A stretch of 64,000 nucleotides of DNA from positions 195,978-259,977 of the forward strand of contig CAIPMU010000016.1 in the NCBI GenBank assembly GCA_903866275.1, in the 5' to 3' direction. The notes under the pieces are model-generated. The model ran no database searches. It was not told the origin of the DNA and saw only the letters and a list, made by a program, of their open reading frames with translations. This stretch comes from Vampirovibrio chlorellavorus (GTDB lineage: Bacteria; Cyanobacteriota; Vampirovibrionia; Vampirovibrionales; Vampirovibrionaceae). Positions within the stretch are counted from its first letter, which is position 1; each line of letters starts with the position of its first letter. Below are positions 51,792 through 52,212 of the stretch, in pieces. The translations under genes and the position numbers were made by a program.

Positions 51792-51879
51792 ATTTTCACC
51801 TCACTCCTCACACTCACTCCTCTACTTCACTTTCTACACACTTCCTTCCAAACGCCGACCCCTGGGTCGGTGTTTTTTT
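51792..51879 (+). ncRNA. CU-rich sRNA candidate, copy 1 (Yfr1-like motif plus intrinsic terminator)
   Basis: ACTCCTCACAC at 51803-51813; hairpin AAACGCCGACC/GGTCGGTGTTT followed by a T-run. Confidence 0.6.
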
Positions 51880-52124
51880 ATGAGCATCACTTTCATACCA
51901 CGATCCCGACTTTAACCTATCTCCAGCCGCTTTAGCCCGAATTCAACCGGGAATGGCCCAATGGCAATATTGGCATTTCCGATGATCGCTCCATTATTTT
52001 TGGAGATTCAGAAAAAATAGCAATAACAAAGATATATCAGTTTTTATTCAAGTATCAGATTTATAGCACCAGGCTCAACCGCCAGTGCCCACCGCTTAAC
52101 CAAATTTTCCATAGCCCAGTCCTG

Positions 52125-52212
52125 ATTTTCACCTCACTCCTCATACTCACTCCTCTACTACACTTTCTACCCTTCCCTTTCAAACGCCGACCCTCTGGTC
52201 GGTGTTTTTTTT
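52125..52212 (+). ncRNA. CU-rich sRNA candidate, copy 2
   Basis: Near-identical direct repeat 333 bp downstream; motif variant ACTCCTCATAC; same terminator stem with a different loop. Confidence 0.58.

Follow-up and report, generated by a model that had tools for sequence, protein, structure and literature searches.

Two tandem units between the DCC1-like gene and glpX

In the window analyzed here (a stretch of 64,000 nucleotides, positions 195,978 to 259,977 of contig CAIPMU010000016.1), the gene for a DCC1-like thiol-disulfide oxidoreductase is separated from glpX by a gap of 783 nt with about 42% G+C. The gap carries two tandem copies of an element which we describe as candidate small RNA (sRNA) genes, referring to the first copy as unit 1 and to the second as unit 2. 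A repeat search found a single family of direct repeats, 91 nt each and 333 bp apart (51792-51882 and 52125-52215, plus strand), where an earlier note on this stretch had reported two direct repeats of ~88 nt at the same distance. Each repeat contains a tract of C, U and A that is 57-58 nt long and has no G (A11 C26 T21 in unit 1 and A10 C25 T22 in unit 2). Within each tract, CUCACUCCUC occurs twice, 13 nt apart, and the tract is followed by an 11-bp hairpin and 7-8 U.

Across the window, CTCACTCCTC occurs four times, always inside the units (51800, 51813, 52133 and 52146), while shuffles would be expected to contain it 0.08 times. A pattern for the 26-mer core and one for the terminator each matched only the two units, with no match expected by chance. 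The longest G-free runs of the window, 67 and 61 nt, also belong to the two units and exceeded those of all 200 shuffles, in which the longest run averaged 36 nt and never surpassed 53 nt. The G-free tract with its doubled motif, the stem and the T-run, all of which the note had listed, are present in the sequence.

The hairpin with its U-run was scored as terminator-like in both units by a terminator scan, with 6 G-C pairs in each stem. It dominates the predicted fold of the units (-17 kcal/mol; z = -5.4 and -6.1), and the CU tract is left unpaired. The stems are identical in the two units while the loops differ (CCTG and CTCT), a pattern that had been taken as selection on RNA structure; what it demonstrates is conservation of the stems, and not covariation. 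Protein coding was excluded because indels of 1-2 nt inside the tract between the units break the frame and no open reading frame (ORF) is common to both units on either strand. An ORF of 40 amino acids on the minus strand (52061-52183) was rejected as a gene, being broken by indels and not conserved in unit 1.

When the two 333-bp periods were aligned, a further block of conservation appeared in each, located about 60-125 nt upstream of the CU tract. High conservation spans the region from a -10-like hexamer, TATAAG, to the U-run. From the onset of conservation and the position of this hexamer, the 5' ends of the transcripts are likely to lie near 51734-51737 and 52064-52066. About 90 nt of each predicted RNA would be unpaired, and the last 57-58 nt of these are the G-free tract.

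A 5' hairpin, said in the note not to be evident, exists about 35 nt upstream of the repeat as it was first delimited. It is an interrupted, two-tier hairpin of 7 bp, found at the same place in all units, including the two of a related scaffold, L165, described below. One type, CGC..ACCG-AUAGC-CGGU.GCG, occurs in unit 1 of the window and in both units of L165, and unit 2 of the window has a different sequence with the same two-tier shape, GCAC..GGC-UCAACC-GCC.GUGC. Folded separately, the two types reached -7.8 and -9.1 kcal/mol. Between them, both partners have changed in three pairs (G-C to A-U, A-U to G-C and C-G to G-C); read by hand from separate folds of two sequence types, these changes provide modest evidence of compensation.

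Conservation of both units in a second species

In a collection of 5.8 billion proteins, no more than three relatives of the DCC1-like protein were found. One of them, 56% identical, is encoded on the 131-kb scaffold L165 (L-numbers denote the relative loci that were fetched). The gene order of L165 is the same as that of the window: Usp, HSP20, MFS, DCC1-like gene, unit 1, unit 2, glpX, prepilin peptidase, sigma and LytB. Its gap between the DCC1-like gene and glpX is 779 nt long and contains two units 343 bp apart. Unit 1 is also carried by L166, from a second sample. The window organism and L165 are the two species from which the units are known. A lack of conservation in relatives, which the earlier note had named as a ground for giving up its proposal, was thus not what we found, since the array of two units is kept in L165.

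As a proxy for neutral divergence, we used the four-fold degenerate sites in glpX, HSP20, MFS and the DCC1-like gene, at which 308 of 552 positions (56%) agree between the window and L165. Compared with this rate, the unit 1 transcript agrees at 137 of 149 positions (binomial p=2e-22). In the unit 2 transcript, identity rises to 88% over the CU tract and terminator. The upstream blocks are conserved as well, that of unit 2 giving the highest of the binomial p values (3e-5). The spacer between the DCC1-like gene and unit 1 is 51% identical, and that between the units is lower still (Table 1). The values strongly suggest that the units are under purifying selection, with conservation far above the neutral rate.

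Across the two species, unit 1 pairs with unit 1 and unit 2 with unit 2, both in the upstream blocks and in the 12 nt before each CU tract. Because the unit 2 blocks are more alike between the two species than either is to unit 1, the duplication is older than the species split, and both copies have been kept.

Table 1. Features of the array and its surroundings (positions of the window unless a locus is named)
Feature	Position	Strand	Remarks
DCC1-like thiol-disulfide oxidoreductase gene, PF04134	50627-51538		5' neighbor of the units
Putative regulatory/promoter block upstream of unit 1 (TTTTTCAGAATATCCAAAATAAGGCAATT..GATATAC..GTTTTTTATTAATGTATAAG)	51667-51733	+	88% identity to L165
Predicted sRNA 1, ~149 nt	51734-51882	+	92% identity to L165 5134-5282; folds; terminator scan
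Parts of sRNA 1	5' hairpin 51737-51758, linker, G-free tract 51792-51849, stem 51850-51875, U-run to 51882
CUCACUCCUC copies in sRNA 1	51800-51809 and 51813-51822	+
Non-conserved spacer between the units	51883-51987		46% identity to L165, no higher than the neutral proxy
Putative regulatory/promoter block upstream of unit 2	51988-52063	+	78% identity to the unit 2 block of L165
Predicted sRNA 2, ~152 nt	52064-52215	+	81% identity to unit 2 of L165
Parts of sRNA 2	5' hairpin 52066-52088, G-free tract 52125-52181, stem 52182-52207, U-run to 52215
CUCACUCCUC copies in sRNA 2	52133-52142 and 52146-52155	+
Promoter-like/leader region of glpX (context, outside the units)	52216-52321	+	76% identity to L165; putative promoter role
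glpX, PF03320	52322-53416	+	3' neighbor of the units
Small ORF upstream of glpX in relatives	L003:2403-2816, L001:2273-2746, L005:2467-2889, L128:1242-1637, L129:2332-2760, L132:941-1501

Copy number of the array

In two lake-water metagenomes, the Logan contigs are interrupted at the repeat, but together they cover both junctions, that from the unit 1 terminator into the spacer and that from the spacer into unit 2. A search at 80% likeness added a variant of 52065-52124 that differs by 5 substitutions and 2 single-base deletions in 60 nt, and a second piece in which a 3' end like that of unit 2 runs into the sequence that normally follows unit 1. In another assembly of the same organism (301 kb), the distance from the DCC1-like gene to glpX is 1112 nt instead of 783 nt, and the additional ~329 nt correspond to one extra unit. 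These data indicate that strains with two units and strains with three units coexist in the population. Since the copy number is 2 or 3 within the population, the repeat is not an assembly artefact. That objection, raised in the earlier note, fails on the junction contigs and on the longer second assembly; the lake metagenome runs are possibly the samples behind the window assembly, and to this extent their support is not fully independent.

The 53-nt CU core (52125-52177) was invariant across all population variants, which cluster in 52065-52124, the 5' third of unit 2. One variant, G>T at 52124, brings unit 2 closer to unit 1 and to L165 (UUAUUUU), and another lies at 52178.

Proposed origin of the units from a small-ORF gene

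In relatives whose glpX is 80-91% identical to that of the window, a small ORF of 131-186 amino acids lies directly upstream of glpX. This ORF, which starts with MAVLFP, was seen in most relatives, namely L001, L003/L004, L005, L128, L129, L131, L132, L133 and L135. Its product had no Pfam match, DUF1127 included. The small protein holds ..LQGFLNI..EG..G.L.. and ..LDGDASSISVDDL.., which by eye resemble EF-hand loops, along with a low-complexity linker and a hydrophobic tail. A tblastn search found no remnant of the small ORF in the window, and the ORF is missing from L165 too. A scan of metagenome contigs guided by glpX, from which L132 was obtained, found few close relatives and none with units.

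The sequence upstream of the small ORF in relatives has the pattern of the unit block (TTTTTCnGAnATCCAAAAnAAGGCAATnA..ATATA..GTTTTTATTnnnGTATAnn). When a hidden Markov model of the four unit blocks was run against 1.05 Mb of fetched loci, the matches on the plus strand fell only just upstream of the small ORF, with E-values of 5e-5 in L001, 0.002 in L128, 0.005 in L003/L004, 0.007 in L132 and 0.012 in L129. At the other end, the terminators of the units and of the small-ORF genes are positional homologues with the form AAAC[A/G]CCG...CGGTGTTTT. In an nhmmer search, the 3' part of the tract together with the terminator matched the 3' untranslated region (UTR) of the small ORF in L001 (E=5e-4).

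In L132, whose glpX is 89% identical, the TAA of the small ORF is followed by GUUUAUCUCACCCCAUCUCACCUCACCUCACUCUCAUAUCUCCAUCCUUUUCCCA. The 3' UTR of this gene is 55 nt long (A10 C25 G1 T19), contains UCACCUCACCUCACUCUCA and abuts the homologous terminator, and that of L001 is 57 nt long with one G. The unit tract and these two 3' UTRs are alike in position, length and composition and share strings such as UUUAU..CACCUCAC. The more distant L003, L005, L128, L129 and L131 have ordinary 3' UTRs with no CU tract. Read by eye, the unit linker GAUUCCAAAGUUUCAA also resembles strings in the 5' UTRs of L132 (UAUUCCAAUCAUUCCAA) and L001 (UAUUCCAGUCAUUAC). A CU motif in the 5' UTR of L001 was considered as a possible means of sequestering the gene's own Shine-Dalgarno (SD) sequence and was rejected, the fold being no better than shuffles (z=0.23) and the alignment not significant.

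The units look like the promoter, the untranslated ends and the terminator of the small-protein gene minus its ORF, and we infer that the unit tract is homologous to the CU-rich 3' UTR of this gene in L132 and L001. In the proposed course of events, an ancestral small-ORF gene upstream of glpX would have acquired a CU-rich 3' UTR in one subclade. The ORF would then have been deleted in the common ancestor of the window organism and L165, fusing the start of the leader to the 3' UTR. Finally, the ORF-less remnant would have been duplicated in tandem, and the array would still be expanding in some strains. The CU-rich 3' UTR was possibly a riboregulator already before the ORF was lost.

Predicted function of the units

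As expected of stand-alone sRNA genes, the units are non-coding, carry a promoter-like block and an intrinsic terminator, and are 81-92% identical between the two species, compared with 56% at four-fold sites. The reading that we favor, with a probability of roughly 0.55, is that they are two (in some strains three) paralogous genes for trans-acting, base-pairing sRNAs with anti-SD-like seeds, forming a family outside Rfam. Of the duplicated pair of Yfr1-like or anti-SD sRNAs that had been proposed, the pair itself is supported, with its promoter-like blocks, unpaired tracts, terminators and L165 orthologues; the link to the cyanobacterial sRNA Yfr1, considered below, is not.

In the proposed mechanism, the unstructured CU tract would pair with purine-rich, SD-like sites in mRNAs (GAGGAGUGAG-type) and block translation initiation. 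A seed of the anti-SD type is plausible by analogy with Yfr1/Yfr10 and CcsR (PMC2190773, PMC6778093, PMC8034643). The units would share the mode of action of these RNAs and of AbcR. Our best guess is that they would work as Yfr1/Yfr10 do, through a single-stranded seed containing UCCUC. The only target lead is a glgA-like gene (33458-35995, 845 amino acids), in which the ribosome-binding site (RBS), GAGGAGUGA, lies 5 nt before the AUG (35996-36009, minus strand). GAGGAGUGA is a perfect 9-nt complement of UCACUCCUC, present twice per unit; such 9-mer matches occur at chance frequency in the window.

Several results weigh against the view that the units are base-pairing sRNAs descended from a small-ORF gene. 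In the window, 8-mers complementary to the seed were not enriched (39, compared with a mean of 51 for shuffled seeds), and duplex energies against the 61 start regions were no better than those of shuffled seeds. The best target matches, that in the HSP20 leader among them, have no conserved counterpart in L165. RNAalifold counted no covariation in an alignment whose MAFFT register misaligns the two hairpin types and which draws on the only two species with units. When the tract alone was aligned to the UTRs of relatives, the similarity was not significant under composition-preserving shuffles (p=0.08-0.13; p=0.08 for the 3' UTRs). Finally, no RNA runs containing the stretch were found, the only matching runs being the two lake DNA metagenomes, which belong to one study.

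Alternatively, the G-free tract could titrate an RNA-binding protein, such as an RRM-type Rbp, a KH protein or ribosomal protein S1, so that the units would serve as protein-binding or sponge RNAs. With its repeated motifs, the conserved tract of unpaired nucleotides is unusually long, 57-58 nt compared with the 8-15 nt that are usual for sRNA seeds. The lack of enriched complementary targets also fits a sponge, but that result covers the 64 kb of the window, and a candidate binding protein was not identified. Protein binding was raised as an alternative even for the Yfr1 motif (Voss et al., PMC2190773). On the other hand, the unit motif is similar to anti-SD sequences, and in Yfr1, CcsR and AbcR such sequences are established to act by pairing. 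We regard a sponge as unlikely.

It is less likely again that the units act in cis on glpX, either through regulated read-through or through pairing of the CU tract with the glpX RBS in a long leader. In both species, glpX follows the units immediately and in the same orientation, just as it always follows the small ORF in relatives. The glpX RBS is G-rich (GGGGGUAGA or GGGGGAAGA), and 8-9 bp, G-U pairs included, could be read between it and the 3' part of the tract. However, this complementarity is short and ranks 7th of the 61 start regions, and both terminators are strong (11 bp and 7-8 U). In addition, unit 2 and glpX are separated by a promoter-like region with conservation of its own, and unit 1 is more than 400 nt away from glpX, with a non-conserved spacer in between.

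Relation to Yfr1

Unit 1 contains ACTCCTCACAC exactly (51803-51813), and unit 2 has ACTCCTCATAC. The earlier note was right that the first copy carries the exact 11-mer of Yfr1, and it had proposed kinship with this sRNA. In the published model, Yfr1 is an RNA of 54-69 nt with two stem-loops, 16-20 unpaired nt between them and the invariant ACUCCUCACAC; the 5' stem-loop has 6-10 bp, the 3' hairpin is GC-rich with a U tail, the gene usually lies between guaB and trxA, and the motif alone is insufficient for assignment (Voss et al., PMC2190773).

Among the four units of the window and L165, ACUCCUCACAC is exact only in unit 1 of the window. Unit 2 of the window has ACUCCUCAUAC, and both L165 units have ACUCCUCUCAC. 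The letters that vary across the four units (ACA, AUA, UCA and UCA) are the 3-nt linker between the conserved CUCACUCCUC copies. A cmscan search of 51400-52500 at E<=10 with permissive filters, run without a positive control, returned no Yfr1 row, and its weak matches aligned mainly to the terminator. No gathering-score match to Rfam was found in the whole window. With about 90 nt unpaired in a predicted RNA of about 150 nt, the units differ from the model in size and in unpaired length, the repeat alone being 91 nt, and their neighbors are the DCC1-like gene and glpX, not guaB and trxA. The GC-rich 3' hairpin with a U tail is present, a feature generic to many sRNAs.

The 11-mer is also close to common repeats. 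The heptamer repeat (ACTCCTC)n matches 10 of its 11 letters and occurs in more than 120 unrelated genomes among the matches listed. The pattern CTCACTCCTCN{1,8}CTCACTCCTC, searched over genome contigs, returned (CCTCACT)n microsatellites of unrelated phyla and no relatives among the matches listed. These (CCTCACT)n repeats are intergenic in more than 120 genomes among the matches listed (L008-L127), from many phyla (Planctomycetota, Campylobacterota, Xanthomonadales, Bacteroidota, Cyanobacteria and Firmicutes among others). A GA-rich, GGAGTGA-like stretch lies shortly upstream of the repeat in several of the genomes.

Genuine homology of the units with Yfr1 or Yfr10, by descent from a common ancestor of Cyanobacteria and Vampirovibrionia, would agree with the exact 11-mer in unit 1, with the shared order of a 5' hairpin, an unpaired CU motif and a terminator, and with a host lineage sister to Cyanobacteria. 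The host lineage proposed in the note is supported by members of the same 90% glpX cluster named Vampirovibrio sp., these protein names being the sole basis of calling the lineage Vampirovibrio-like. Moreover, the Yfr10-like RNAs share only the motif with Yfr1 (PMC6778093). However, a narrow subclade contains the small-ORF gene to whose UTRs the units can be followed back, and the CU tract is missing in the more distant L003, L005, L128, L129 and L131, which points to a recent origin. The common (ACTCCTC)n repeat also comes close to yielding the motif. Because of this recent, traceable origin and because conservation of the 11-mer, an Rfam match at E<=10, the size and architecture, and the synteny are all missing, we consider common descent with Yfr1 very improbable, and the proposed kinship was not upheld.

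The likeness to Yfr1/Yfr10 consists of a single-stranded CU-rich motif with a UCCUC core, placed between a 5' hairpin and a Rho-independent terminator, of a host in the sister class of Cyanobacteria, and of a likely mode of action by pairing with purine-rich mRNA sites. Unlike in Yfr1/Yfr10, the motif is present twice in each unit RNA, 2-3 such RNAs are arranged in tandem, and the origin of the units can be traced, within a narrow subclade, to UTRs that belonged to a small-ORF gene.

A relic without function, an assembly artefact or an element acting at the level of DNA, for example a protein-binding array or a polypyrimidine tract, is a hardly credible reading of the units: descent from a gene that lost its ORF, the resemblance of the tract to a decayed heptamer microsatellite and ongoing recombination between the units would fit such a view, but the identity of 81-92% to L165, where neutral DNA has 46-56%, and the retention of both copies since before speciation rule out a neutral relic, while RNA is indicated by the asymmetry between the strands and by the compensatory changes in the hairpin, and the junctions are present in independent contigs and in a second assembly.

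Comparison with known sRNA families

In organization, the closest analogues of the candidate sRNA genes appear to be the CcsR1-4/cuckoo RNAs of Rhodobacter and rhizobia, tandem anti-SD sRNAs that derive from the UTR of a small-protein gene and are found with the small protein CcaF1 (PMC8034643, PMC4615179). In both systems, several homologous sRNAs follow one another in tandem and a CU-rich, anti-SD-like motif occurs twice in each of them, and both are tied to the UTR of a small-protein gene, the CU tract being the 3' UTR of that gene in L132 and L001. The unit motif CUCACUCCUC lies in a linear tract predicted to be unpaired, whereas the cuckoo motif CCUCCUCCC lies in two hairpin loops. Furthermore, the small protein of the relatives lacks DUF1127 or any other Pfam domain, the ORF is gone in the window and L165, each unit appears to have its own promoter, the host belongs to another phylum, and there is no Rfam match.

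AbcR1 and AbcR2 of the Rhizobiales are tandem paralogous sRNA genes, each with its own promoter and terminator, whose anti-SD motifs (CUCCCA) lie in loops. The units are like them in being tandem paralogues with their own promoters and terminators and with anti-SD-like motifs. They differ in having no similarity in sequence or structure to AbcR, in lineage and neighboring genes, and in carrying the motifs outside of loops. Small RNAs derived from 3' UTRs, and sRNAs born from degraded genes, are a general concept, and the functional part of the units does correspond to the 3' UTR and terminator of a protein-coding mRNA in relatives. In contrast to such cases, the coding part is wholly lost, the ancestral promoter would drive the former UTRs, and the product is duplicated.

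We propose tentatively, at somewhat less than even odds, that the units represent an sRNA family born by ORF loss and amplified to 2-3 tandem copies, the first in Vampirovibrionia and an independent functional counterpart of Yfr1/Yfr10. A search of full-text literature found no sRNA described for Vampirovibrionia or Melainabacteria. If true, the units would be the first conserved riboregulator candidate of Vampirovibrionia, located beside a central gluconeogenic gene. They would also be a case in which the birth of an sRNA can be traced, since relatives keep the ORF with a CU-rich 3' UTR, two species have ORF-less duplicates, and strains vary in copy number. How elements of 3' UTRs become independent sRNAs could then be addressed by comparative genomics and metatranscriptomics. 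The case also calls for caution with motif matches, for the exact "ultraconserved" 11-mer of Yfr1 is no sign of homology here.

Neighboring genes and recurring elements

The DCC1-like protein is 56% identical between the window and L165, compared with 90-93% for its neighbors (glpX, HSP20 and MFS), and the gene may be fast-evolving or recently acquired. Its presence (4001-4939 in L165) coincides with that of the ORF-less units. The window glpX has an N-terminal extension of about 43 amino acids (52322-52450), and its Pfam FBPase_glpX domain begins at residue 44. The extension is also found in L165 (372 amino acids) and in several close relatives, in which the match covers 99% of the query.

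In the glpX leader (52237-52308), a conserved small hairpin, GGGC-UAAAAUA-GCCC, is followed by UCCAAUUUUU. This hairpin was called terminator-like, and its loop holds a -10-like TAAAAT. A 40-nt, A-rich, G-free run (52269-52308) comes after the hairpin and is partly deleted in L165. An element like TTTTGnTAnnAT also lies upstream of glpX in L003, L005, L007 and L131.

An operator-like palindrome, TTCnGA-N3-TCnGAA, recurs at several places. It is perfect in the upstream block of L001 (~2103-2117, TTCGGAGATTCCGAA) and partial in all unit blocks, and the glpX leader of L165 holds a similar string, TTTTCAGGGCTTCCAA. A palindrome or hairpin also follows the stop codon of the DCC1-like gene (51552-51566 in the window, TTCTGAATTTCAGAA; L165:4947-4963, TTTCGGGTTTCCCGAAA), where the letters differ and the symmetry is kept. 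The recurring palindrome may mark a shared regulator.

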